DNA of 64,000 nt from an uncultured Candidatus Saccharibacteria bacterium (GCA_964473815.1 CAYYQK010000005.1:3847-67846), one strand, 5' to 3'; positions 7 through 33,335 are shown, numbered from the stretch's first letter. The notes: a model not told the origin generated them from the letters alone. Translations and numbers: made by a program.

Positions 7-258
7 ATGAAGCCAATCCGTGACTTTGCTAATATTGGCATCGGCGTAATTTTCGGTATCGCCGTTCTCTACGCTGTGGTCATGGTTGCTTGGTACGGCA
101 TTAAACTCCAGTCCTCTGCCTCAGACCCGATAAAGTCTCAAGAAGCTAAAGCGGGTCTTAAATCCACTGTGGTCGGTGTAGGTATTACCTTTGCTGCCAT
201 CTTCATTATCGGAATAATCCTGTATGTCTTAGGTTTGATCGGTATTAGAGAAAACTAA
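7..258 (+). CDS. VirB2/TrbC-like T4SS pilin (small two-TM protein)
   Basis: 83 aa with two hydrophobic helices flanking a hydrophilic loop; located first in an operon with VirB6/VirB3/VirB4 homologs. Confidence 0.4.
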   Translation: MKPIRDFANIGIGVIFGIAVLYAVVMVAWYGIKLQSSASDPIKSQEAKAGLKSTVVGVGITFAAIFIIGIILYVLGLIGIREN

Positions 259-267
259 TTTAAAGTT

Positions 268-1185
268 ATGGAAACAGAAGATACGCCAAAGAAGCAAAAC
301 ATCTTACAGAAAATAGATGGCTTCTTTGGAAAATTTATTCCCAGTTTCAACGCCAGAGCAATTCTCTATTTCAGTCTGATTTTCGCAACGGCTCTTTACC
401 TGCAAATTTGGCGTATAGGATCACATACTCCGCCGCCGCAAAAGCAAACAGAAACAGTCATAGCAGATGACTCATATTGGAATGGTAGTGAATACCATGA
501 CCGGATAAAGAACCAAACTGTTGAGTCTTTCACTAAGGAATTACAAAATTGGCTCAGTGGAAATAGTCAAGAATTTTCACGCAGGAAATTCGAGGACATG
601 CTGTTTATCAATAGCGCTTCAACCCTTGATACTGGCGGCAGCGTTGCCACAATTGTACCCGAGAGTTTCAACTATCTGGAAAACCATGCTAGAGGCAGAT
701 ATCAGTACGCTAAACAAAATGGTTTTCTCAGCGACAGCCCTACTTTAATTTCTTACGGCAATCTAGTATGTGATATTGGCGACCGGACGGAAAAAGATAC
801 CGGCATCGACATTTATGAATGGCGGTATGCATCTATGCCGAAGCTGGCTGCATTTATGAACACAAAGCCGGATTGGAAGGTACAAATCAAGGATAGAATT
901 TTAGATGTTAGTGATCCGAGAATTGAAGACGCTGGCTTGCTCGCCACCAAAACGAGCCAAAGCCAGCCGCCAGGACTATTCTCCTTCCTTATCTTCCAGG
1001 ATAAAAGCAGTAACAGAATTTATCTAGCAGATAGCGAGATTTTAGAAATGAACAGCGTGGATGCAAGACAAACCTTTAGCAATTTAGTGGGATTAAAGAA
1101 GCAACCAAAGCTATATTACAAATACGGCTTTGAAGGCTGCAAGCAAATCAATAATTCAACTTCTTCCTATGAACAATTTGATTAA
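268..1185 (+). CDS. T4SS-associated membrane-anchored protein (possibly VirB8/VirB5-like), hypothetical
   Basis: 305 aa, single N-terminal TM helix followed by a soluble domain; operon context only. Confidence 0.3.
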   Translation: METEDTPKKQNILQKIDGFFGKFIPSFNARAILYFSLIFATALYLQIWRIGSHTPPPQKQTETVIADDSYWNGSEYHDRIKNQTVESFTKELQNWLSGNSQEFSRRKFEDMLFINSASTLDTGGSVATIVPESFNYLENHARGRYQYAKQNGFLSDSPTLISYGNLVCDIGDRTEKDTGIDIYEWRYASMPKLAAFMNTKPDWKVQIKDRILDVSDPRIEDAGLLATKTSQSQPPGLFSFLIFQDKSSNRIYLADSEILEMNSVDARQTFSNLVGLKKQPKLYYKYGFEGCKQINNSTSSYEQFD

Positions 1186-2479
1186 CGCCATACTCTCAAA
1201 CTACGTCCCAACGATTATTATCGTTAGTTTAGTTATTGGCATATTTGCTATGGCTATTGCCGGAGTGATTAGGAACTCGGGCAAAGCAGATGATATCGCC
1301 CGCTCGAACGCCATTATGCAAACCGTGATTATCGGCTTCATTATGCTGTTCATTTCCGGAGCTTTCGTGTTTGCTTTCCACCAAACCTATGTCAGCCAGG
1401 TTTACAACAACGTCCGCGAAGATGTGGAAAGAAAACTGCCCGCTAACAGCGATACCAATAACACTGAATTGCTCGGTAATGAAGTAAAAGACACCGGTAT
1501 TACCACAAATGATTCCCGCTGTATTTTAGTGGTGGTGGATACTATTGATTGTGTTAAAAAGACCATTAATGACATTATTGGCAGCATCATTGAAAAAGTC
1601 GTTAGAGGGTTCGGTGTTGCCATAAGCAAGATCGTTGAAAAATTTAACTTCAAATTCTTATTTAACCTCCCGGCAGAAATTTTTGATAACAGCGATAATC
1701 TCCCCGCAGACCAAATGCAGCGTATAATTAACTTTAATGCCCTGCTCAAAGTTAGCGAGATTATCGGCCTAGCCTTTGTTTATCTCCTCATAATTACCCA
1801 TTATTTCAAATCTATTATCTTTTCTTTAGATAATGATTATTCCAGTGACTTTGTCGGCGACATCGGCAAAATGCTCTTAGGTTTTGCCGGAGTATTCTTG
1901 GCCAGATATATCGCTGAAGCCGTTATTCTGACAGGACAAGCATTTGCCTCCTTTCTGTTTAACACGCCCTTAGCAAACGGCCTTATCACTGCTTTAAAGG
2001 CTTTGGTCACAGATGCCCTCTGGGGAGGATTCAGCGGCTTTAGTGTGGCTTTAGTTGGCCTGGCTATCTTTGTGCTAATTTATATAATCCTGTTTGCTTT
2101 TGTGGTCTTCCGTAATGCCAAACGCTACTTCATTCTCCTCTTGATGATTCTGCTTGCTCCAATTTTTACGCCCATGCTGTTTTTTGACATGACTCGAAAT
2201 ATGGGCACGATCTTTTGGCAAAAGTTTATGGTTACGAGTTTCTCTTTAATTTTCGACCTCTTGATTCTCTTAATGATGTTTGTGTTTCTAAGTAGCGGCG
2301 GCATCACCCTGAGCAACCTCATTTTAATTCTAATCGGTCTAGCCATAATTGCCGATAGTAATAATCTATTGCAACAAATTGCCAATGCCGCCGAAGTCGC
2401 CGGATTTAAATCAGTTGTCAGGAAAGGGTTATCCTCCGGAACCGGACTTTACTACAAACTCAAAAGTTTAAAACAATAA
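1130..2479 (+). CDS. VirB6/TrbL-like polytopic inner-membrane T4SS protein
   Basis: 449 aa with many TM helices, located between pilin-like and VirB3/VirB4-like genes. The true start is probably at an internal Met after the 1185 overlap. Confidence 0.4.
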   Translation: MKAASKSIIQLLPMNNLINAILSNYVPTIIIVSLVIGIFAMAIAGVIRNSGKADDIARSNAIMQTVIIGFIMLFISGAFVFAFHQTYVSQVYNNVREDVERKLPANSDTNNTELLGNEVKDTGITTNDSRCILVVVDTIDCVKKTINDIIGSIIEKVVRGFGVAISKIVEKFNFKFLFNLPAEIFDNSDNLPADQMQRIINFNALLKVSEIIGLAFVYLLIITHYFKSIIFSLDNDYSSDFVGDIGKMLLGFAGVFLARYIAEAVILTGQAFASFLFNTPLANGLITALKALVTDALWGGFSGFSVALVGLAIFVLIYIILFAFVVFRNAKRYFILLLMILLAPIFTPMLFFDMTRNMGTIFWQKFMVTSFSLIFDLLILLMMFVFLSSGGITLSNLILILIGLAIIADSNNLLQQIANAAEVAGFKSVVRKGLSSGTGLYYKLKSLKQ

Positions 2480-2480
2480 C

Positions 2481-2933
2481 ATGGACGACAAGCAAACCAA
2501 AATAGATATACCCGATTCTATTGAAAGTTACTCGGTAACTCTGTTTTGGGGTCTAACCATAAAGCAAATCGTTTTAATGTTTGTAGCTACGCTATTTGTA
2601 GGTTTTGGGGTATTTGCTGTTGTAGCTAGAAATTATGCCACGCTTCTGCTCATGCTTATTATGGCTAGCCTCACTATGCTCGGCATGGTCGAAGTTAAAG
2701 GCCGCAATTTCTTTCGCTATCTTCTGTTCATCTTCAGTTATTACAAAACTAAACCGCGGGTGCTAATTTATCACCATTATCAAATTAGCGGACAGCTTCC
2801 AAAACAAAGAAAACAATTAGTTTACCAAAAAGAAAATAACAATAAACTACTCATTATTATGTTCATCAGCTTAATTGTAGGAATTATCGTTTTAGTTCTT
2901 ACGGGAATCCACCTCTACCATGTCGCTCACTAA
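2481..2933 (+). CDS. VirB3-like small membrane protein
   Basis: 150 aa with an N-terminal TM pair, immediately upstream of VirB4 with a 14-bp overlap (typical VirB3-VirB4 coupling). Confidence 0.35.
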   Translation: MDDKQTKIDIPDSIESYSVTLFWGLTIKQIVLMFVATLFVGFGVFAVVARNYATLLLMLIMASLTMLGMVEVKGRNFFRYLLFIFSYYKTKPRVLIYHHYQISGQLPKQRKQLVYQKENNNKLLIIMFISLIVGIIVLVLTGIHLYHVAH

Positions 2934-5316
2934 CCTATTATTTAAAACAAAACCGAAATTTAAAACCCTGCTTAACTTTTGGCAGTTTAAAGACTTGAAT
3001 GACGGAGTCATCATTATGAAAAACGGCTCGTACCGAATGTGCCTTGAAGTTTTTCCGGCGAACTTCGGCCTTATGGACGAGGAAGAAAAGAAACGAGCTA
3101 TTACAGGCTTTGAGCAAGTCTTACGAGAAATTGATGCGAAGTACCCTTTAAGGGTTCTTATTCAAACCCGCAAGACCAATGCCGAGGATTATATCGACCA
3201 AATTGAATACGCATACAGTGTTCGTAATATTGGCACTTATGACTTATTTCAAAAATACGCTGATTTCATCAGAGAAATCAGCAAGGATTATGAGATTATT
3301 ACCAAAAAATTCTATCTCATACTTGAGTTCAGTGAATTAAAATATACCCTGTCTAAAGACATCATTAGCCGAGAGGATAAGAATGCTAAGAAGAAACGGA
3401 AAATTTCTGAGCAAGAAATTTTCCAAGAAGCTAGAACCAGCATGATAAGCATCTTAACAACTTTTAAATCCCAGCTTAAGGCCATAAACCTTGAAAGCCG
3501 CATCTTGGAATCCGGAGATATCGCTAAAGCTATGATGGCTTATTTAGATGAAGAAAAGTTCTTAAACAATAGAGACTTCTTTGACGGACTGGATAATTTC
3601 CGCAAACAAGCTAAAGAATACGAATTGCCTTTTTCAGTATTAAATAAAATCAGCCCTAATTTTATTGAAGAAGAAAATATTGATCTGTTAAGCATTAACG
3701 GCAAACAATATTTAAGATCAGAGTTTGTCAGCGAACTCGGCTCTTATGCCTACATTGATTGGTTTAAAGAAATTATCATGTTTCCTTATGCCTCGGATAT
3801 TATGTTTACCTTTACCAGCAAAGATCCCAAAGATACGGTGGCGAAAATAACAGAAAAGCGCCACCGGATTGAATCGAAAATCTTTGATGAAAAGAGCCAG
3901 CATAAGCCTAAGAATATTGCCGACAATCTAATTTTGGAAAGCACCGAACGAATTGAAAAACAATACCTCCGCTCCGAAATAAAACCGATTGATTTGAAAA
4001 TTGAAATGACTTTTCGCTCCGACACCATTCAAGCTCTCAACATGGTGCATATGAATATGGAGCGAGTTTTGCAGCGCAAAATGATGCAATCAAGGATTTA
4101 TCACTACGAACAGATTGAAGGACTGAAAGGCACTTTCATTGCCGGCAACAGCGAAACGGAAATTCGCAATCACAGAGACATCAATACTGATGTCGCTTCC
4201 TTCACTTTTCCGTTCATTACCCCGCAAATTTCCTCCAATACCGGCATTCTCTACGGGGTTGATGAAATTAACCGCTCACTTGTTACCATTGACCGCAAAG
4301 AACTGGAAAGCTATAACCGCTCAATTATTGCCTCCACCGGAGCCGGCAAATCCTATTTCATAAAACTCGATTTGATACGCTCGAGGATGATCGGTTATCA
4401 GTCATTCGTCCTTGATGTGGAAAACGAGTTTGAAATGGTTACCAGTTACCTAAAAGGTAAATACATTGAGCTAAGTGATAAATCTATTTACTACATTAAC
4501 CCCTTTAATTTAGCCGGCGAGGAGTATAAGGCGCAAAAGATTGAATTCGTCAGGCAATTATTCCAAACTTTGTACTCGGGAGAAAAAATCAGCGTTACGG
4601 ATATTACCCACATAGAAAAAGCTATTGGCAGTGTTTATGACCGTCATTTGATAAACGGTACTCAGCCTGTCTTAAAAGACTTCATTGCTGCCATAGATCA
4701 GCTAATAAAGACGGAGGCAATCTCAGGACTGCTGACCGTACTTCGCTCTTACAGTGAACCAACTCATCCGCAGTATTACCTGTTTAACAAACAGCAAAAT
4801 ATTGATTTCGCTACTGATGATCTTATAGTTTTTGCTTTAAAGTATGTGGATAAAAGAGATTTCGTAGTCGCAGTAATTTTGGAAAGTTACTGGAATTATA
4901 TTAACCACCCGAAGAATAAAACGAAATTCAAAAACTTAATCATTGATGAAGCCAGTCAATTATTCCAGTATGGGCTTATCGTAGAAAAGCTAGCCTCCCT
5001 AGCCCTCAGAGGCCGCAAGTACAACTCCGGTGTAACAACCATTGTACAGTCAATCAATCACTACTATAACAGCGGGTTTCCGAGAACGAGTGATTTATTT
5101 GACCAATCCTCGCTGACTTTAGTAATGAAACACAAAGTCAGCGACTCGTTCGATAAGCTCAACGAAAAAGTGCACATCAACAAACCGGAGCGCACTTACT
5201 TAGAAAAACTAGAAATAGGTAAAGGACTACTAATAGTTAATAATTCCAAAATCCCCCTGTCCATTGAAGCCAGCGAAGAAGAAGATAGAGTTTGCACCAC
5301 TAAGCCGCCCAGATAA
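2920..5316 (+). CDS. virB4: VirB4/TrbE/CagE-family conjugal transfer ATPase
   Basis: 798 aa; Walker A 'IIASTGAGKSYF', Walker B-like 'LIIDEASQLF'; size and architecture typical of VirB4. Confidence 0.8.
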   Translation: MSLTNLLFKTKPKFKTLLNFWQFKDLNDGVIIMKNGSYRMCLEVFPANFGLMDEEEKKRAITGFEQVLREIDAKYPLRVLIQTRKTNAEDYIDQIEYAYSVRNIGTYDLFQKYADFIREISKDYEIITKKFYLILEFSELKYTLSKDIISREDKNAKKKRKISEQEIFQEARTSMISILTTFKSQLKAINLESRILESGDIAKAMMAYLDEEKFLNNRDFFDGLDNFRKQAKEYELPFSVLNKISPNFIEEENIDLLSINGKQYLRSEFVSELGSYAYIDWFKEIIMFPYASDIMFTFTSKDPKDTVAKITEKRHRIESKIFDEKSQHKPKNIADNLILESTERIEKQYLRSEIKPIDLKIEMTFRSDTIQALNMVHMNMERVLQRKMMQSRIYHYEQIEGLKGTFIAGNSETEIRNHRDINTDVASFTFPFITPQISSNTGILYGVDEINRSLVTIDRKELESYNRSIIASTGAGKSYFIKLDLIRSRMIGYQSFVLDVENEFEMVTSYLKGKYIELSDKSIYYINPFNLAGEEYKAQKIEFVRQLFQTLYSGEKISVTDITHIEKAIGSVYDRHLINGTQPVLKDFIAAIDQLIKTEAISGLLTVLRSYSEPTHPQYYLFNKQQNIDFATDDLIVFALKYVDKRDFVVAVILESYWNYINHPKNKTKFKNLIIDEASQLFQYGLIVEKLASLALRGRKYNSGVTTIVQSINHYYNSGFPRTSDLFDQSSLTLVMKHKVSDSFDKLNEKVHINKPERTYLEKLEIGKGLLIVNNSKIPLSIEASEEEDRVCTTKPPR

Positions 5317-6077
5317 TGTCGCTACTTCAAGTTACTCAATTAGCGCATGGTGTATATACCAATAGACGAAGAATCTCACGGATTATCGCCGCATTGGTAA
5401 TTGGCTTTGGTATTCTGCTATTTCTACTCTACTTTGTTGTTGCCACGGCTTTTGCAGTGATACAAGGCCAGGGCAATGTTACTGACAACGACCCTGGTGA
5501 TAGCGGTATCCCATTTACGGAATTTGAATACTTTCGCTACAAAACTATCAATAGCGAAGTCTGGTATGAATACCACCATAAATACTACTTCCCAACTTTG
5601 GGAAGGCTAACGCAAGGAGTAATCTTAGACAGCTCTGCCGCAGTGGGACTTCGCCATATTGCCTGGGATATTGCCGATAGAGTGTCTCGCCGCACAGAAG
5701 TAAAAGCCTTTTCCGAAGGCAGTGTTGCCGCAGTAAAAGATAATACGCTCTACAACACCACGAGGCGGTGGCGGTTTTGTAGTAGTAGCCCAAATGGAAT
5801 TTGCTGGTATGAAGTAGCAGAGAGAGCAGATGTCCAATATGCCTGTGGTAATGAAATAATTATCCAGCATCCAGACTCTTTGAGAAGCCAGTATTGCCAC
5901 TTAGCCAGTCTACCTAGCTTTAACAGTGGTGATCCTATTCAAGGTGGCCAGACTATTGGTTATCAAGGACAGACCGGCTGGGCGACCGGCAAACATTTAC
6001 ACTTTGCCTTATGGCGTGGTGGGCAGCCGATTGATCCCTCTTATGCTTTTACTCAAACGCACTTAGATGATTGGTAG
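5316..6077 (+). CDS. M23 family metallopeptidase (LytM domain), membrane anchored; possible VirB1-like cell-wall remodeller
   Basis: N-terminal TM helix; C-terminal 'GYQGQTGWATGKHLHFAL' (HxH) and upstream HxxxD-like 'HPDSL' motifs; start overlaps the virB4 stop (ATGA). Confidence 0.75.
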   Translation: MSLLQVTQLAHGVYTNRRRISRIIAALVIGFGILLFLLYFVVATAFAVIQGQGNVTDNDPGDSGIPFTEFEYFRYKTINSEVWYEYHHKYYFPTLGRLTQGVILDSSAAVGLRHIAWDIADRVSRRTEVKAFSEGSVAAVKDNTLYNTTRRWRFCSSSPNGICWYEVAERADVQYACGNEIIIQHPDSLRSQYCHLASLPSFNSGDPIQGGQTIGYQGQTGWATGKHLHFALWRGGQPIDPSYAFTQTHLDDW

Positions 6078-6079
6078 CT

Positions 6080-7239
6080 TTAAATACGTTTTTCGATTTT
6101 AACTTTCGAAAAATTCTTGTCTGTTTTCACTTCCACACCCGCTTGAGGAAACCAATACTCCCCGGCCTGCTTTCGTAAGTTAAAACTATTGGCATGAATA
6201 AAATGACCTAAGTAAGAATTAATAATTGCCTCCACTATTCTATTATCCTGAGAAGATTGCTTCTGAAACTGCCAAAGGCACTGCTTGAATCTACATACTA
6301 CTTTACGGCGTACTAATACATAGCTTGGTTTAATAAAATAGCCCAAAAAATCCAGACCTTGAGCAGCCGGTCGCAGAATAATTTTTTTGCCATTCAAGCT
6401 AAGATTGAGCTTTTCTTTGAGAAAAGTGGCAATCGGCTGAATATATGACCGCAGCTTTTCTTTGTCAGCATCGAAAATAACAAAATCATCCACGTAACGA
6501 ATGTAGCGAGTCACCGCTAATTGATGGGTAATAAATTGATCTAATTCATTGAGGTAGATATTAGCAAAAAACTGGCTCGTCAAATTGCCAATAGGCAGAC
6601 CCTCACCTGCAGCTGAAAATAGCGATTTTGATTCTGGAATGAGAAATTTATCACTGCATAAGCCTTTGCGAAGATAATTCTTGGTCGGATCCTGAAAAAT
6701 AATTTTTTGGACTAGCCATAGCACTTGGTGTCGCCAAATTTCACTAGATAATTCGCCCCCCCCCCGACTGAAATTTTTTCGTTGATTAAAGAAAACAGAA
6801 TATGCTTATCAATCGAACGAAAAAAACTCTGAATGTCGAGCTTTAAGTAATAATTACCTTTTCTTTCTCTTCCGACCTCGGCAATAAACTGTCTGGCTTT
6901 TGTAACAGCCCGGTGAGTACCTTTGCCTTTGCGGTTAGCGAAAGAATTATAAATAAAATCTTGTTCAAACAAAGCGAAAATTTCATTACACAGTAAATGA
7001 TGCACGATTCGATCGCGAAAATCGGCGGCAAAAATTTCTCGAGGAGTCGGGTAAGCAATAATAAAACAAACGTGCCGCGAGATTTGATAACGGCCGCTTT
7101 GGAGTTCAGAAAGTAACTGAATTAAATTCTTCTCTCGATTTAGCTCAAACAACAGAGCATTGGCTGTTTTTTTCTTGCCTCGGTGACAGTCTTTATAGGC
7201 TCGGTAGAGATTTTGCAAAGTAAAAATTGATTCGCTCAT
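6080..7239 (-). CDS. DGR reverse transcriptase, reading frame interrupted at a G10 homopolymer (two ORFs 6712..7239 and 6080..6724)
   Basis: Upstream ORF carries RT motifs 1-3 ('FAADFRDRIVHHLL'). Downstream ORF carries 'GLPIGNLTSQ' (IGxxxSQ, DGR-diagnostic) and 'YVDDFVIF' (YxDD). The frames join if the G run (minus strand of 6756..6765) is 11 or 8 nt instead of 10. Confidence 0.8.
6756..6765. repeat. C10/G10 homopolymer tract inside the RT coding sequence at the frameshift site
   Basis: Direct count gives ten consecutive C on the + strand. The upstream-frame stop codon lies 14 codons after the tract. Confidence 0.9.
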
Positions 7240-7279
7240 AGAAGTTAAAATAAGCCCAGGGCTGGAGGCGGGAGTGCTG

Positions 7280-7409
7280 GGACACAGCGGACGTAGTTGC
7301 TATTATCCATATTGTCGTTGTTGGAATTGCCATTGTAGAAATTCGTTAACCACGCGTTGTTCGGATTGTCCTCATAGGCAGTAGACGACCAGTAGTTGTC
7401 AGACTGGGT
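7280..7409 (-). repeat. DGR template repeat (TR)
   Basis: 130-bp near-identical copy of the 3' end of gene 7960..8916. All 14 mismatches are T on the + strand (A on the coding strand) in TR versus A/C/G in VR. ORF 7245..7475 overlying it is spurious. Confidence 0.85.
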
Positions 7410-7563
7410 AGCAATTAAAAGATTTCCGACTAACTTAAAATAATCAATTTCATTTATTCTTCCCACTGACCGCATGCGATACCGAAATCAGTGCAAAGAG
7501 CGGAAATCTGGATTCCCAAAGCCCACACTTGAAAGGCTCGCGGCCCATCAATTCCGGGGAGCG

Positions 7564-7920
7564 TCATTTTGAAACGCTTTTCCTCCAGCCCTCGGCTTGT
7601 TTTGAAAGAGCGACAGCTTGCTGCAAAAGATACAAATAGCTTTTTTCACCGCCAAGCTGCTTAAGCTCATTGGCAATACGCAGAAAAATAATAATTGATT
7701 CGCTTTGCCAGATCAAGTCACCCAGGAGCTTTCGTCTGGTCGATAGATCGCTGCTGTTATTGATCTCCAAAATAAGTCGAATGGCTTCAATATTGGCAGC
7801 TAATATTCCACTGCCGAGCAGATATTTATACTGCTTGCCGAATTTAGGGACCCGCAAATACATTTCCCGAAGCAAGGCGAAAGCAGTATTGTAAATCGGT
7901 AGATGAGAATATAGCGCCAC
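7564..7920 (-). CDS. avd: Avd-like accessory variability determinant (small helical basic protein)
   Basis: 118 aa, predicted helical, positioned between VR and TR exactly as avd in canonical DGRs; no strong motif, so the call is positional. Confidence 0.5.
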   Translation of the reverse strand: MALYSHLPIYNTAFALLREMYLRVPKFGKQYKYLLGSGILAANIEAIRLILEINNSSDLSTRRKLLGDLIWQSESIIIFLRIANELKQLGGEKSYLYLLQQAVALSKQAEGWRKSVSK

Positions 7921-7959
7921 AAAAAAACCAAATGATCAAAGAATCAAATTACCAAATTA

Positions 7960-8916
7960 CTATCCTCGGACACAGCGGACGTAGTAGCTATTACCCATAC
8001 TGTCGTAGTAGGAATCGCCATAGTAGAAATCCGAGAACCACGCGTAGTACGGATAGTCCTCATAGGCAGTAGACGACCAGTAGTAGTCAGACTGGGTGTT
8101 AGGGAAATAAGTAGTGTTAATGCTAGGATTAACCCGTCCATAGTCCACTATGGAATTTAATTCTCTTATATTGGGCAGATGCCAGTCAGTATGGCCAGCC
8201 AGGCTAAGAGCCTGACAATAATCTATCGCCGGAAAATGGCCAGCTCCCTGGTCGCCGTTACCGTCATCAAAGACATACGTGTCTGCACTGCCACCGGAAC
8301 AATCGCTGCCGGTTTGACCAGCAGAGCATTGCTGCCACATCAGGCCTGTGGAATTATCAGTAATAGTGCCGTTACTGTTGTCGGTGTAGGACAAAGCTAC
8401 TCCGGTCTGGGATTCTCCATCTTGACCAGTCCCGCTGCACGGCACCTGGCTAGCCGAGCTGTAGTCATCGCTAAAGGCATTGCAGTGGGTTTGGCCAGTC
8501 AGCAGAGAGGCAGCAGAAGAACCCGAAGTAGCAGTACCGGCAACCCCTAAATATGTTGTGCCTGTTAACACCTTGGTCGGATCAATGGTGGGAATCGCGT
8601 TGTAAATATCAGCTAAAGTGTGGAAGGTGCCAGCCGGACTGCCGCCAGTAGTCAGGCTATGGTCGCCTTCGGTGACTGTGGCGTTGGTCGTCAGACGGTT
8701 GTAAATGTCAGTTAAGGTATAAAAAGTGGCGGCTGGAAGGCTGGAGGGCGAAAGATTGCCGGCATGGGCCACCCCTGCCAAAACTCCTACGGTAATGACT
8801 ACGCTCACACTGCTGTGGAGCACAGTTTTTAGCCAATTTCTTTTAGAGGATGGCTTCATGGCCGAGACCTGGATAATGCTCCTGATCTTTGGACCCTGAT
8901 TTTTTGAGTTATTCAT
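7960..8916 (-). CDS. DGR target protein: secreted or membrane-anchored protein with a C-terminal DUF1566/Lcl-like (C-type-lectin fold) variable domain
   Basis: Signal/TM peptide ('VVITVGVLAGVAHA'; the likely true start is Met at ~8859); 'TGLMWQQ', 'DWHLPNIRELNSI'; C-terminus 'QSDYYWSSTAYEDYPYYAWFSDFYYGDSYYDSMGNSYYVRCVRG' matches TR-encoded '...NYW...NPNNAWLTNFYNGNSNNDNMDNSNYVRCV' with N/T/L codons diversified. Confidence 0.85.
   Translation of the reverse strand: MNNSKNQGPKIRSIIQVSAMKPSSKRNWLKTVLHSSVSVVITVGVLAGVAHAGNLSPSSLPAATFYTLTDIYNRLTTNATVTEGDHSLTTGGSPAGTFHTLADIYNAIPTIDPTKVLTGTTYLGVAGTATSGSSAASLLTGQTHCNAFSDDYSSASQVPCSGTGQDGESQTGVALSYTDNSNGTITDNSTGLMWQQCSAGQTGSDCSGGSADTYVFDDGNGDQGAGHFPAIDYCQALSLAGHTDWHLPNIRELNSIVDYGRVNPSINTTYFPNTQSDYYWSSTAYEDYPYYAWFSDFYYGDSYYDSMGNSYYVRCVRG
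7969..8098 (-). repeat. DGR variable repeat (VR) at the 3' end of the target gene
   Basis: 130 bp; 116/130 identical to TR, with the 14 differences all at TR-adenine positions. Confidence 0.85.
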
Positions 8917-8968
8917 GTGTTTATTTTTTAATTATTTATATTAGCTATTAACGTAACGCTTAACCCTC

Positions 8969-9994
8969 TTAACGGATGACCCGACTGTCATTTGGCACCA
9001 GCACAGGCAAGCCGGGATGATTCTTTAAGACCAAAAGGTCATTGGCATTGGCCGGAACCAGGTACTGAGCCAAACCGCCGTTGCTTAAGAAGATGTCCCA
9101 GCTTGGCACGCCAATCAGTCCCTGGGAGCCGATGTAATAAACTGTCCCTCTGTTTATTACCCAGGAACTCCAGGGGTGGGACTGGGTCGGTGAAGATAGA
9201 AAGTAACTGTCGGCTAAACGGTAACCGGGTAAGTTATCGGAAATAACATTATCTAGTTTATATCCTAATCCGACAAACGCTGGCCAGGAAGTAAAGCCCA
9301 CGGCCACGTACGGTTCAGTAATTAAGTAAATGGTTCCCTGGTAATTAACCAAAGTGCTGGGCGGATAAGAAGGAGGCATAGTCAGCGGTGCTTGCAAGCC
9401 GGGCGGGTTCGCCGGTGGCGGGACATTGGGTTGGCTTGACGGCGGAATGTAACTCCCACCACTGCCTCCACTACCTCCGGTGCCGCCGGAAGCAGGCCGC
9501 CACGTTGTGATAACTTTATAATCCACAGTGCCGCAGGAAGCAGTATCCGCACAGTTAAAAACAATCCAGCCCACGTTTTCGCCGTAAGCCGCGCCGTGGA
9601 ACACACCGCTGCTGTCTATGGTCACGCCAGCTCCAGCAGGGTTAAAGTGAAGCCAGCCCACGTTTTCGCCGTAGGCATAGCCGGCAAGCGTGCCATTAGT
9701 GTTAGACACCTTATAATCCACAGTGCCGCAGGAGGAAGTATTGGCACAATTCAGCGAAAGCCAGCCCACGTTTTCGCCGTAGGCATAGCCTGTCAAGGCT
9801 GAATCGGTTACGGTAACGTTGCCGGCCGAGATGCCGAAGTCCAGCCAACCGATATTTTCACCGTAAGCGTAACGGTTGGCAGGCTCAATAGTGCCTGTAG
9901 AGGCATGGACGCTGGGTGGGGCGAAAAACAATGCGATCGTTAAAGCAGCAATAATCGCAGCGTATACCTGCCGTTTATAGTAGTATAATTTCAT
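8969..9994 (-). CDS. Secreted repeat protein (four ~38-aa 'GYAYGENVGWL...N' repeats, Gly/Pro-rich linker, C-terminal domain), hypothetical
   Basis: N-terminal signal peptide; repeats 'YAYGENIGWLDFG', 'YAYGENVGWLSLNC', 'YAYGENVGWLHFNP', 'AAYGENVGWIVFNC', each followed by 'SCGTVDYKV'-like segments; 'GGTGGSGGSGGS' and poly-Pro linker. Confidence 0.5.
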   Translation of the reverse strand: MKLYYYKRQVYAAIIAALTIALFFAPPSVHASTGTIEPANRYAYGENIGWLDFGISAGNVTVTDSALTGYAYGENVGWLSLNCANTSSCGTVDYKVSNTNGTLAGYAYGENVGWLHFNPAGAGVTIDSSGVFHGAAYGENVGWIVFNCADTASCGTVDYKVITTWRPASGGTGGSGGSGGSYIPPSSQPNVPPPANPPGLQAPLTMPPSYPPSTLVNYQGTIYLITEPYVAVGFTSWPAFVGLGYKLDNVISDNLPGYRLADSYFLSSPTQSHPWSSWVINRGTVYYIGSQGLIGVPSWDIFLSNGGLAQYLVPANANDLLVLKNHPGLPVLVPNDSRVIR

Positions 9995-10032
9995 TTGGTT
10001 TCTAGGTTATTGACTTTGCACTTATTATATCA

Positions 10033-10041
10033 CCCCCCCCC
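10033..10041. repeat. C9/G9 homopolymer tract about 40 bp upstream of the start codon of gene 8969..9994
   Basis: Direct count gives nine consecutive C on the + strand, in the intergenic leader. Confidence 0.9.
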
Positions 10042-10717
10042 TTGATTTACAAGAAACTAGCCTAAAAACAGGCCTTTCTGTAGTATCCAAACTTATGTTC
10101 TATTCAATTGACAAGTGCCTGTTAAAATATGTCGCTAAAGATACTCATGATTACAAAATACTTCCCATATCTTGGTTAATTAATCACGCAGCAATGAAGT
10201 TTTCTAGGTTTTCGCTCATTATATAAATAATGTAGCAAGGATAGCCAAAAATTTAAAAAATCAGCATCGAAGTACTGATACTTTTTAATAGTCGTATTAA
10301 CTGGACTTTATTTCTGTTTTGTATTCTTCTCCCATCTTTCTTTGGACTTTTGGTCTTGGTTTTGGTATTTAGTTTTGGGGTTTGTAGTTTTGGAATTAGT
10401 TCTTTTGGTGGTCTTTGGGTTTTAAGAGTGGTGTTGGTTTTTTTAGTTAGATATGTTGACCTTGTAGTACGGTGTCGTTCAGTGGATTCTCTGGTGAGAG
10501 TAATAGTCAACGGATTGGCTATTAACTTTGAGCAGTAAAACCAATGGTTTTAGCTTCTCAACTAGTTGAACCCTAGTTCAACTAGTTCTTCCACCAGTTC
10601 CTCATACACTGAACACCTCCATCATATCTCAAAAATAACCTTTGTCAAGCGGGAATTTCGGAATGTGGGTATGGCAGGAGTTAAACCTCTTTCCCAGCTT
10701 GACGGATATACAGGGTT

Positions 10718-33001: not shown

Positions 33002-33299
33002 TCGGGAGTAGCTCAGTGGTAGAGCAATCGGCTGTGTCACAAACCATACGCAGCCCTGAATGGTAACATTTAGGTGATAACGAGGTGAATTGCTGGAAGC
33101 CTGTTTGCCGAAAGGCAATGGTAATCAGCAGCCAAGCTACTTAGTAGAAGGTTCAGAGACTATCCGCAAGGAGTACTGCGACTAGTTCGCGGGAAGCGCC
33201 TCGCATCCTAAGGGATGATGATATAGTCCACCCCTTTTCGAAAGATTAGGATAATGTGTAACCGATCGGTCCTGGGTTCGAATCCCAGCTCCCGAGCCA
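33002..33299 (+). tRNA. tRNA gene (Asn-GUU favoured by G73 discriminator, or Thr-UGU) interrupted by a group I intron in the anticodon loop
   Basis: 5' exon TCGGGAG-TA-GCTC-AGTGGTA-GAGC-A-ATCGG-CU; 3' exon ...AA-CCGAU-CGGUC-CUGGG-UUCGAAU-CCCAG-CUCCCGA-G-CCA. Acceptor, D, anticodon and T stems all pair. Confidence 0.8.
33034..33258 (+). ncRNA. Group I self-splicing intron (~223 nt) within the tRNA anticodon loop
   Basis: Contains group I core elements: P 'AATTGCTGGAA', Q 'AATCAGCAG', R 'GGTTCAGAGACTA', S 'GATATAGTCC'. The 5' exon ends in U and the intron ends in G; boundaries are uncertain by ~2 nt. Confidence 0.75.
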
Positions 33300-33301
33300 A
33301 C

Positions 33302-33335
33302 AAAAAACCACTAACTTGTTTAGCGGTTTTTTTGT
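33302..33335. terminator. Hairpin terminator following the tRNA, possibly bidirectional
   Basis: aaaaaaccactaa-cttgt-ttagcggttttttt. Confidence 0.45.

Follow-up and report, generated by a model that had tools for sequence, protein, structure and literature searches.

The stretch of DNA analysed here, called the window below, comprises 64,000 nucleotides from an uncultured Candidatus Saccharibacteria bacterium (GCA_964473815.1 CAYYQK010000005.1:3847-67846), and it carries a diversity-generating retroelement (DGR) on its minus strand at 6080..8916. An earlier note, made from the sequence alone, had read this interval as a target gene with a variable repeat (VR), avd, a template repeat (TR) and a reverse transcriptase (RT) gene, and the same order was found here. 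A partner gene and a promoter-like site lie upstream of the target and extend the region of interest to 10052. The coordinates of all features, including those of related loci, which are given by number (L002 and so on), are collected in Table 1.

A repeat search found one direct repeat in this region, 7277-7409 and 7965-8097 (133 nt, 89% identity). TR and VR, 130 nt each, were compared base by base at a fixed offset of 688 nt, and exactly 14 mismatches were seen. Each of them corresponds to an adenine on the coding strand of TR (T on the plus strand), as had been claimed. TR contains 40 A in its 130 nt, and the hypergeometric p for 14 of 14 mismatches on A is 1.1e-8. A non-A mismatch (C in TR, G in VR) was found at 7279/7967, directly outside the 3' homology boundary. 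The earlier note had placed the TR correctly, but its VR (7969..8098) has to be moved to 7968..8097. Read in the frame of the target gene, the 14 changes affect 13 codons, all non-synonymously, and comprise AAC to TAC (five times), AAT to TAT, GAT or AGT, TTA to TTC, ACG to TCG and GAT to GGT. TAC and TTC had thus been named correctly as derivatives of AAC and TTA, but GAC, AGC, TCT and ACT do not occur. Likewise, the count of 40 adenines stands, but TR holds six AAC plus six AAT codons in the VR frame and not seven AAC.

The homology ends with a GC-rich GTCCGCTGTGTCC, after which the next bases are GAGGAT in VR and CAGCAC in TR. This boundary resembles an initiation of mutagenic homing (IMH) site, and the divergence past it is consistent with an IMH/IMH* pair, which would be its putative role. 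Since a 27-nt A-poor core of TR is present only at TR and VR in the 64 kb (chance expectation 0), the window holds a single VR, and no additional one was found with this core at up to 3 mismatches. The element appears to have been active recently, because 14 A-to-N changes and zero other differences lie within 130 nt. A second assembled copy of the locus (L001) is identical to the window. A 76-aa open reading frame (ORF) that was called mechanically over TR (7245..7475, minus strand) is nothing but the VR frame continued through TR (QSDNYWSSTAYEDNPNNAWLTNFYNGNSNNDNMDNSNYVRCV). This ORF, or a 37-aa ORF that the Logan record has in the avd-TR spacer, may be taken for a gene by annotation software.

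The RT motifs IGNLTSQ and YVDD, described in the earlier note, are both present. The best match of the RT in the PDB was 8ub7_A (328 aa; E 1.1e-47), and other matches were the GsI-IIC group II RT (1.5e-12), a retron-type RT (7.5e-11) and Drt3a (4.6e-6). The entry 8ub7_A is the Bordetella phage RT, bRT, as the aligned residues I181, Q187 and D215/D216 are those named for bRT (10.1101/2023.10.23.563531). In this alignment IGNLTSQ of the window RT (I217-Q223) falls on IGSLTSQ of bRT (I181-Q187), and YVDD falls on YMDD (D215/D216). The C-terminal part also matches Pfam RVT_1 (E 2e-19), and the IGxxxSQ and YxDD motifs are invariant in 23 RT homologues. Of about 80 genomic relatives of the RT, at least 40 are directly preceded by a repeat that differs from a second copy almost only at A. 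With metagenomic loci added, the number of related loci in which a TR directly precedes the RT and at least 80% of the mismatches are at A is 53. The ranking of the structure matches and this context, taken in place of a formal tree, indicate that the RT belongs to the DGR type, apart from group II intron and retron RTs, in agreement with the earlier note.

The RT shares the RVT_1 fold and an N-terminal extension with group II intron RT/maturases, and TIGR04416 was its best NCBIfam model, below threshold. It differs from them in that the 104.7 bits reached with this model fall short of the cut-off of 300, in that it has IGxxxSQ and not QGxxxSP, and in that the window has TR/VR and Avd but no intron RNA. 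Assignment of the RT to a defence, retron or group II type was tried and rejected, as the PADLOC and NCBIfam matches were all sub-threshold or generic.

The ORF between target and TR had been proposed as avd from its length, helical nature and position, and its homology bears this out. It matches Pfam bAvd PF22296 (E 4.4e-7, 30.8 bits, under the gathering score of 40) and NCBIfam DivGenRetAVD (E 0.001). The ORFs that occupy its place in L002, L010 and L102 share 76-80% identity with it. At least 60 candidate ORFs from related loci are Avd homologues upstream of an RT, and PF22296 was matched by all 20 of the homologues that were aligned (best E 3.5e-19). Homology was also the reason for taking the GTG at 7920 as the start. 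A search of the PDB with the Avd sequence gave zero matches, and an Avd profile gave only a weak match to 2gsc (E 0.023) and missed 4DWL. By sequence, then, this ORF is an Avd of the bAvd family. Among the nearest relatives Avd is far better conserved than the RT (76-80% versus 55-59% identity).

The target gene has the features that had been read from it, namely a signal peptide, a DUF1566 domain and the VRCVRG end. Its probable start is M20 at 8859, which gives the 299 aa annotated in NCBI/ENA (P0123), and the protein from M20 has a typical signal peptide ending in AHA. Pfam Lcl_C/DUF1566 PF07603 was found on residues 183-317 (E 2.9e-37, 128 bits versus a gathering score of 34.9). Zero matches were found when the target sequence was searched against the PDB. 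An AlphaFold model built with 45 homologues had a pLDDT (the model's own confidence score) of 81 overall and above 90 throughout the C-terminal domain. The top Foldseek match of this model in the PDB was 8q4e_A, the C-terminal domain of Legionella Lcl (probability 1.00). The next matches were C-type lectin-like domains (snake-venom snaclecs, CLEC-2, CD94/NKG2A, MBP-C and LOX-1). On this model the C-terminus of the target is predicted to adopt a C-type-lectin-like fold, as the earlier note had expected. Taken together, the TR/VR pair with its RT, Avd and lectin-type target is a genuine DGR.

The gene upstream of the target had no Pfam or NCBIfam match. More than 1000 homologues of it were found, and their repeat part is without a Pfam domain. 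In relatives the C-terminal part is swapped among PG_binding_1, SLH and CarboxypepD_reg domains, which anchor proteins to the cell wall or S-layer. In L002 (P0246), L011, L096 and L165/L166 (P0347) the Lcl_C target gene of the DGR is immediately preceded by such a homologue. The gene is a conserved partner linked to DGRs, and it would plausibly serve as a cell-wall anchor for the diversified protein. With relatives that bear cell-wall anchors, it suggests that the diversified lectin-like protein may be displayed via a two-protein surface complex.

Table 1. Features of the retroelement region, of the adjacent genes and of related loci. Positions are those of the window or of the locus named.
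Feature	Position	Strand	Remarks
Promoter-like site	10024..10052	-	TTGTAA-ATCAA-G9-TGA-TATAAT; G9 at 10033..10041 within the 17-nt spacer
Partner gene (putative)	8969..9994	-	341 aa; signal peptide; five or six GYAYGENVGW-type repeats; 52 nt upstream of target
DGR target gene	7960..8916	-	318 aa; signal peptide; C-terminal Lcl_C/DUF1566; ends VRCVRG
VR	7968..8097	-	Last 43 codons of target; A-derived substitutions span 7986..8085
avd	7564..7920	-	118 aa; GTG start; between target and TR
Helix, upstream arm	7582..7603	-	Within avd 3' end (KQAEGWRK); 22-nt inverted repeat, 91% complementary
Structured RNA domain (predicted)	7419..7561	-	About 140 nt; between avd stop and TR (gap of about 155 nt)
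TR	7280..7409	-	40 adenines; 3' end 38 nt upstream of RT ATG
Helix, downstream arm	7247..7268	-	Starts 9 nt past TR end; stops 8 nt before RT ATG
RT, N-terminal part	6712..7239	-	175-aa ORF; aligns to bRT residues 10-161
G10 homopolymer	6756..6765	- (C10 on plus strand)	Site of RT frameshift
RT, C-terminal part	6080..6755	-	Second frame; mechanical ORF 6080..6724 (214 aa); IGNLTSQ, YVDD, thumb; aligns to bRT residues 175-316
Type IV secretion core (by sequence)	2481..6077	+	PrgI-like PF12666, 2481..2933; VirB4/TraC-like ATPase, 2920..5316; Peptidase_M23, 5316..6077
Partner homologue, L002	12140..13090		
Partner homologue, L011	~1439..2317		
Partner homologue, L096	~70..948		
Partner homologue, L165	5001..5876		
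Partner homologue, L166	966..1841		
8-12-nt G/C tracts, L011	337..347, 1417..1426, 3266..3275		
8-12-nt G/C tract, L096	49..57		
8-12-nt G/C tract, L007	1332..1340		
8-12-nt G/C tracts, L165	3894..3903, 4980..4988		
8-12-nt G/C tracts, L166	945..953, 2753..2763		
8-12-nt G/C tract, L103	1517..1525		
8-12-nt G/C tract, L133	2948..2955		At avd/RT junction
8-12-nt G/C tract, L142	2168..2179		At avd/RT junction

RNA structures around the template repeat

TR is bracketed by a helix in which 20 of 22 positions are paired. The helix is present in the minimum free energy fold of 7620..7200, and this fold is more stable than those of shuffled sequences (z -2.9). An ungapped helix scan with shuffles found the same placement, with different sequences, in 13 related loci. 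The RNAalifold consensus of 11 loci has 21 pairs, 10 of them with compensatory changes, though these counts are biased upward because the arms had been selected for pairing. In distant non-CPR relatives (outside the candidate phyla radiation, CPR) the scan did not separate the helix from background. The part of avd that forms the upstream arm is under a double constraint, since it both encodes protein and pairs in the RNA helix.

A structured RNA domain was found inside this helix, in the gap that separates the end of avd from TR. Its parts are a hairpin whose sequence varies, closed by a CCC/GGG stem, two conserved unpaired stretches (UUUGGGAAUCCAG and GAGGAUAAA), and a long-range stem of 8 bp between GCUUCCGC and GUCGGAAGC that is 100% paired. 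A covariance model, R1, was built from 14 loci, and its sole match in the 64 kb was the domain itself (80.2 bits, E 2.4e-20). R1 matches 21 distinct related loci, including 7 outside the seed. The matches are always on the RT strand and 200-340 nt upstream of the RT start, and none was found in more distant DGR loci. In the alignment of the 21 sequences 94.5% of cells are paired versus 73% in shuffles, and the covariation score is 0.659 versus 0.21 in shuffles (0/500) and 0.07-0.18 in slid controls. Double changes were seen in 14 of the 20 pairs. This alignment is fitted to the model, which favours structure. A search of 5900..10300 against Rfam 15 found no family at E <= 1 and no group II intron RNA.

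For the prototype of the family, the DGR of Bordetella phage BPP-1 (mtd-avd-TR-brt), it has been reported that an avd:Sp duplex, called cPRT Stop, and a TR:Sp primer duplex position self-primed cDNA synthesis, where Sp is the 140-nt spacer downstream of TR. The window is the same in kind as regards the first of these, since the 3' end of avd pairs with sequence downstream of TR. The layout is different in other respects. The TR-to-RT spacer is about 38 nt in the window versus 140 nt in BPP-1, and the protein-binding RNA elements of BPP-1 are all downstream of TR, whereas the structured domain of the window is upstream, between avd and TR. Stem-loops or a primer strand of the BPP-1 type were not found downstream of TR in the 38-nt gap, which was the part searched, the interior of the RT ORF being left aside. 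Inspection by eye for a BPP-1-like primer:template duplex gave only a 4-bp hairpin at the TR 3' end (GCUG/CAGC).

We infer from this arrangement that in this clade the protein-binding scaffold would precede TR and be attached to the opposite strand of the helix around it. An upstream RNA domain together with a very short downstream spacer suggests that the scaffold for self-primed cDNA synthesis can be organised unlike that of BPP-1. The upstream domain matters for the annotation and engineering of DGRs because the published conservation scan covered just 40 nt upstream of TR.

The reverse transcriptase frame and the poly-G tracts

The earlier note had called the element complete. This did not hold up, as the RT is read as two ORFs that are split in a run of ten G, both in the window and in a Logan contig. 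True RT sequence in the N-terminal ORF runs to the G tract, and the 14 codons past the tract are out of frame. The frame is restored by 11 G, by 8 G or by a -1 slip on the tract. The repaired RT is a continuous protein of 385-386 aa, with EKISVGGGGELSSEIWRHQVLWL at the junction, and it keeps every column that is invariant among 22 homologues (51-60% identity). The two frames overlap without a stop only near the tract. The tract encodes a glycine stretch in an RT loop of variable length, at the start of an insertion of about 40 aa relative to bRT. The same G10 is present in the Logan contig ERR4682891_268886, which a separate assembler built from run ERR4682891 and which is identical to 2078..9679 of the window. 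NCBI, ENA and Logan all hold the RT as two separate half proteins. Completeness of the element is thus not shown, the RT of the dominant assembled genotype being frameshifted at G10. No second lesion was found in the RT, avd, TR or the RNA elements.

G10 is one of two unusual runs. The 64 kb contain 21 G/C homopolymers of length 5 and a single one of length 6; lengths 7 and 8 do not occur, and the only longer ones are a G9 and a G10, each with its G on the coding strand of the DGR cassette. GGG is the rarest Gly codon (13%). The G9 lies within the spacer of the promoter-like site. This site, at 10052..10024, was the best one preceding the cassette in a promoter scan (10/12 matches, 17-nt spacer, TG before the -10), and it ends 29 nt before the ATG of the partner gene.

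G tracts were also found at promoters of related loci. The L011 promoter reads TTGCCA-AAACGCTC-G10-TATAAT, and L165 and L166 have the same promoter with G9. The L096 promoter reads TTGCAA-AAGCAGTC-G9-TATAAT. In these four loci the promoter precedes a homologue of the partner gene. L007 has TTGCCA-AATTGGTT-G9-TATACT, and its downstream gene encodes a different, 295-aa protein. Most tracts of relatives immediately precede a TAnnnT -10 box, and a TTGCCA-like -35 is spaced 17-18 nt from that box. The promoters that bear them stand before avd, a second RT gene or the partner/target operon. In L011 (3266) and L166 (2753) the tract makes up the 3' side of a hairpin that follows the stop codon of the target. 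At the RT loop itself, L091 (956..965, Ga0209542_10124946; 53% RT identity, 57% GC) has an in-frame G10 (DAGGGQ), and the closest relative, L002, carries GGGGGCGGG. Loci of the sub-clade contain 7 runs of at least 8 G in 116 kb and other low-GC DGR loci contain 10 in 599 kb, so that the density is 3.6 times higher in the former (Poisson P 0.004, a post hoc test).

The second RT gene lies near the DGR in L011 (about 364..1390) and L165 (about 3918..4942), and its product begins MARIQFIHTYQ or MSRIQLGHT. It has its own upstream G10-G11 tract and -10 box, and L165 adds a bAvd gene on the opposite strand.

Switching by homopolymer tracts is established at the porA and opc promoters of Neisseria, at the fim promoters of Bordetella and in the poly-G tracts of Treponema pallidum tpr genes. 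The promoter-spacer G9 and the out-of-frame G10 resemble such contingency loci (Neisseria porA/opc, Bordetella fim, the poly-G genes of Campylobacter and Helicobacter, and the Treponema pallidum tpr promoters). They differ from them in that heterogeneity of tract length was not seen here, where the comparison was a single between-sample pair. That pair, L165 and L166, has the same partner protein in two samples, and no difference in tract length was found, both being G9. It is plausible that the G tracts fit slipped-strand contingency control, with length variation observed between lineages only. The literature searched gave no link between DGRs and homopolymer phase variation and no report of a DGR RT gated by a homopolymer tract.

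Proposed mode of action and alternative explanations

The genes and signals from 6080 to 10052 on the minus strand form one operon-like cassette, made up of promoter, partner, target with VR, Avd, structured RNA, TR and RT. Its footprint, its parts and the RNA structures were found at the locus itself, and the steps that follow, a mutagenic retrohoming like that of BPP-1 that best explains the locus, are drawn by analogy with that phage. The RNA from the 3' end of avd to the RT start would fold so that the helix of 21-22 bp encloses the domain of about 140 nt and TR. The RT with Avd would copy TR into cDNA and misincorporate opposite adenines. This cDNA would then replace VR, with GTCCGCTGTGTCC as the 3' limit of the transfer, and up to about 25 codons would be recoded on the ligand-binding face of a secreted C-type-lectin-like domain. 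In the dominant genotype mutagenesis would be OFF, and gain of a single G would restore it, as would a slip of the ribosome by -1 or of transcription by +1.

We favour the reading, at a probability of roughly 55%, that G10 is a genuine slipped-strand length variant of a hypermutable tract, so that the element is currently OFF yet can revert. Several observations weigh against this reading or against the mechanism above. The length of the G tract and the sequence of VR are known from assembled sequence alone. An intact window RT, in its 11-G or 8-G form, was not found in a collection of 15 billion proteins. The Logan contig and the metagenome-assembled genome (MAG) probably share reads, so a systematic homopolymer error has to be reckoned with. 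Plain decay or assembly error is a realistic background, because frameshifts at other sites were seen in 2 of about 160 related RTs (about 2%), namely L159 (about 3260, a T6 run) and L163 (about 1340..1370). The upstream arm of the helix lies about 170 nt before TR, versus immediately upstream in BPP-1, and both the site of priming and what the upstream RNA does are only presumed. Finally, no hairpin or cruciform was found after VR, where the DNA fold of 7890..7985 was no better than shuffles (z +1.75); in the relatives L011 and L166 a C-rich/G-tract hairpin does follow the target.

A narrower form of the favoured reading adds selection for the tracts. Both would then be contingency loci, G10 controlling translation of the RT (OFF with G10, ON with G11 or G8) and G9 controlling transcription of the operon (ON, through the 17-nt spacer), and cells of the population would switch both hypermutation and expression of the surface proteins. 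This is a tentative proposal. It is supported by the confinement of every G/C run of at least 7 nt in the window to the coding strand of the DGR operon, by the position of G9 in a promoter spacer, and by orthologous promoters that vary only in tract length (G9 in L165/L166 and L096, G10 in L011). The in-frame G10 of L091 at the same RT loop and the enrichment of long G runs in the clade also agree with it. However, the one pair of samples did not differ, the closest relative is without any long tract, and the enrichment was tested post hoc. In addition, a G tract beside the -10 could be a fixed promoter element, and some tracts of relatives are just the 3' arm of the hairpin after the target gene (L011 and L166). 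Should the lengths of the tracts indeed vary, the locus would be a natural example of hypermutation switched on and off stochastically, with a bearing on how cells keep down the cost of a DGR. A broader claim is that this lineage departs from BPP-1 in both respects, with an upstream RNA domain on the avd-side strand of the helix and with two poly-G tracts that gate the mutator ON and OFF, and we regard it as rather doubtful.

Another possible explanation is that the DGR is intact and active and that G10 is a sequencing or assembly miscount of a true tract of 11 G (or 8 G), as the earlier note had implicitly assumed. Indel errors typically arise at homopolymers, the same reads probably underlie both assemblies, the RT is otherwise perfect with all invariant columns kept, and TR and VR have no non-A difference in 130 nt. 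On the other side, two different assemblers agree on the tract length and the intact version is absent from the record. Long G runs are also not obviously miscounted here, because the length of G9 gives exactly the 17-nt promoter spacer. A miscount is rather unlikely.

Decay of the DGR is about as unlikely. In this case the frameshift would be an ordinary inactivating mutation in a mutable tract, loss of the element would be under way and VR would be fixed. The frameshifts of related RTs at unrelated sites and the lack of an intact copy on record point in this direction, but neither a further lesion in the RT, avd, TR and RNA elements nor a non-A difference between TR and VR was seen. Irreversible loss is also unlikely because a G10 tract reverts at high frequency anyway.

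It is quite improbable that the 10-G allele is recoded, through a -1 ribosomal frameshift on G GGG GGG or through RNA polymerase slippage, to give a low, tuned level of RT. A -1 shift would give exactly ...SVGGGGELSS... leading into the conserved W..VLWL motif, and the stop-free overlap of the frames is confined to the surroundings of the tract. Nevertheless, no stimulatory structure was found downstream, G runs are poor as known slippery sites, and the tract of L091 is in frame and hence needs no recoding. Finally, the idea that the locus is not a DGR, with a repeat left by duplication or recombination and an RT from a group II intron, retron or defence system, can be dismissed: the sub-threshold NCBIfam and PADLOC matches to group II, Drt and retron RT models that suggest it score far under the curated cut-offs (NCBIfam), no other solved structure comes near bRT as a relative, mismatches confined to A have p 1e-8, the locus has the Avd, the TR placement and the C-type-lectin target of a DGR, and the region has no Rfam family.

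Compared to BPP-1, the element has the same order of target with VR, avd, TR and RT, adenine-specific mismatches, an RT with IGxxxSQ and YxDD, an Avd of the bAvd family and a target with a C-type-lectin fold. It differs in that the BPP-1 DGR is phage-borne and this one is cellular, in that the BPP-1 target is Mtd and this one is Lcl_C/DUF1566, in that no hairpin follows VR, and in that the RT has an insertion of about 40 aa and a frameshift. The DGR of Legionella pneumophila (LdtA; category 'd'/CLec2, PMC5758913) likewise has its VR in a DUF1566-type C-terminus of a secreted or surface protein. In contrast to that DGR, the window target is without evidence of a lipobox or TAT signal, the organism is CPR-like, and a partner gene with GYAYGENVGW repeats is linked to the target.

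The closest likeness is to the DGRs of CPR bacteria. The nearest homologues of RT, Avd, target and partner are almost all from MAGs of Patescibacteria. Work by Paul et al. from 2017 reportedly belongs beside this CPR/Patescibacteria clade. As in that clade (clade 2, PMC8144416), the element is cellular and has a short target without a recognisable domain besides the CLec-type C-terminus. It differs in that the closest RT identity is about 59% and the window RT is frameshifted at G10. No relative with more than 60% RT identity was found in GTDB genomes or JGI metagenomes, and the literature searched held no description of poly-G tracts or of an upstream RNA domain in the CPR clade. The element is thus an ordinary member of the known CPR-type (Patescibacteria-like) DGR clade. 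This clade has already been described as abundant (PMC8144416), and one more example of it, taken as a DGR, is of modest value.

Neighbouring genes and a tRNA intron

The genes that adjoin the DGR on the plus strand are, by sequence, a type IV secretion system (T4SS) core of the Gram-positive type (PrgI/PrgJ/PrgK-like). The ATPase gene at 2920..5316 encodes 798 aa with TraG P-loop/TraC-like character, and the M23 gene is convergent with the RT gene, the stop codons being 2 nt apart. The earlier note had placed a VirB4 T4SS and pilin genes beside the DGR. The VirB4/TraC-like gene was found as expected, together with the PrgI-like and M23 genes, but pilin genes were not verified, and the ORFs 268..1185 and 1130..2479 had no Pfam match. 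From this location the note had also suggested a diversified surface adhesin used in cell-cell or host contact. A functional tie to the T4SS is unsupported, as the only link is the adjacency of convergent genes, and the DGR of L002 sits in a different neighbourhood (pilM, ribosomal protein L19 and Fic). No GC anomaly that would mark a horizontally acquired island was found around the DGR.

Elsewhere in the window, a group I intron (RF00028, 76.7 bits, E 1e-17) was found at 33026..33250, inside a tRNA gene at 33002..33310 on the plus strand. The 5' half of the interrupted tRNA begins with GGGAGTAGCTCAGTGGTAGAGCA and the 3' half ends with GGTTCGAATCCCAGCTCCCGAGCCA. ARAGORN called zero tRNAs on the 64 kb, and a tRNA was called after splicing in silico. 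One choice of splice sites gives a candidate tRNA-Thr(TGT), with splice sites and anticodon provisional.

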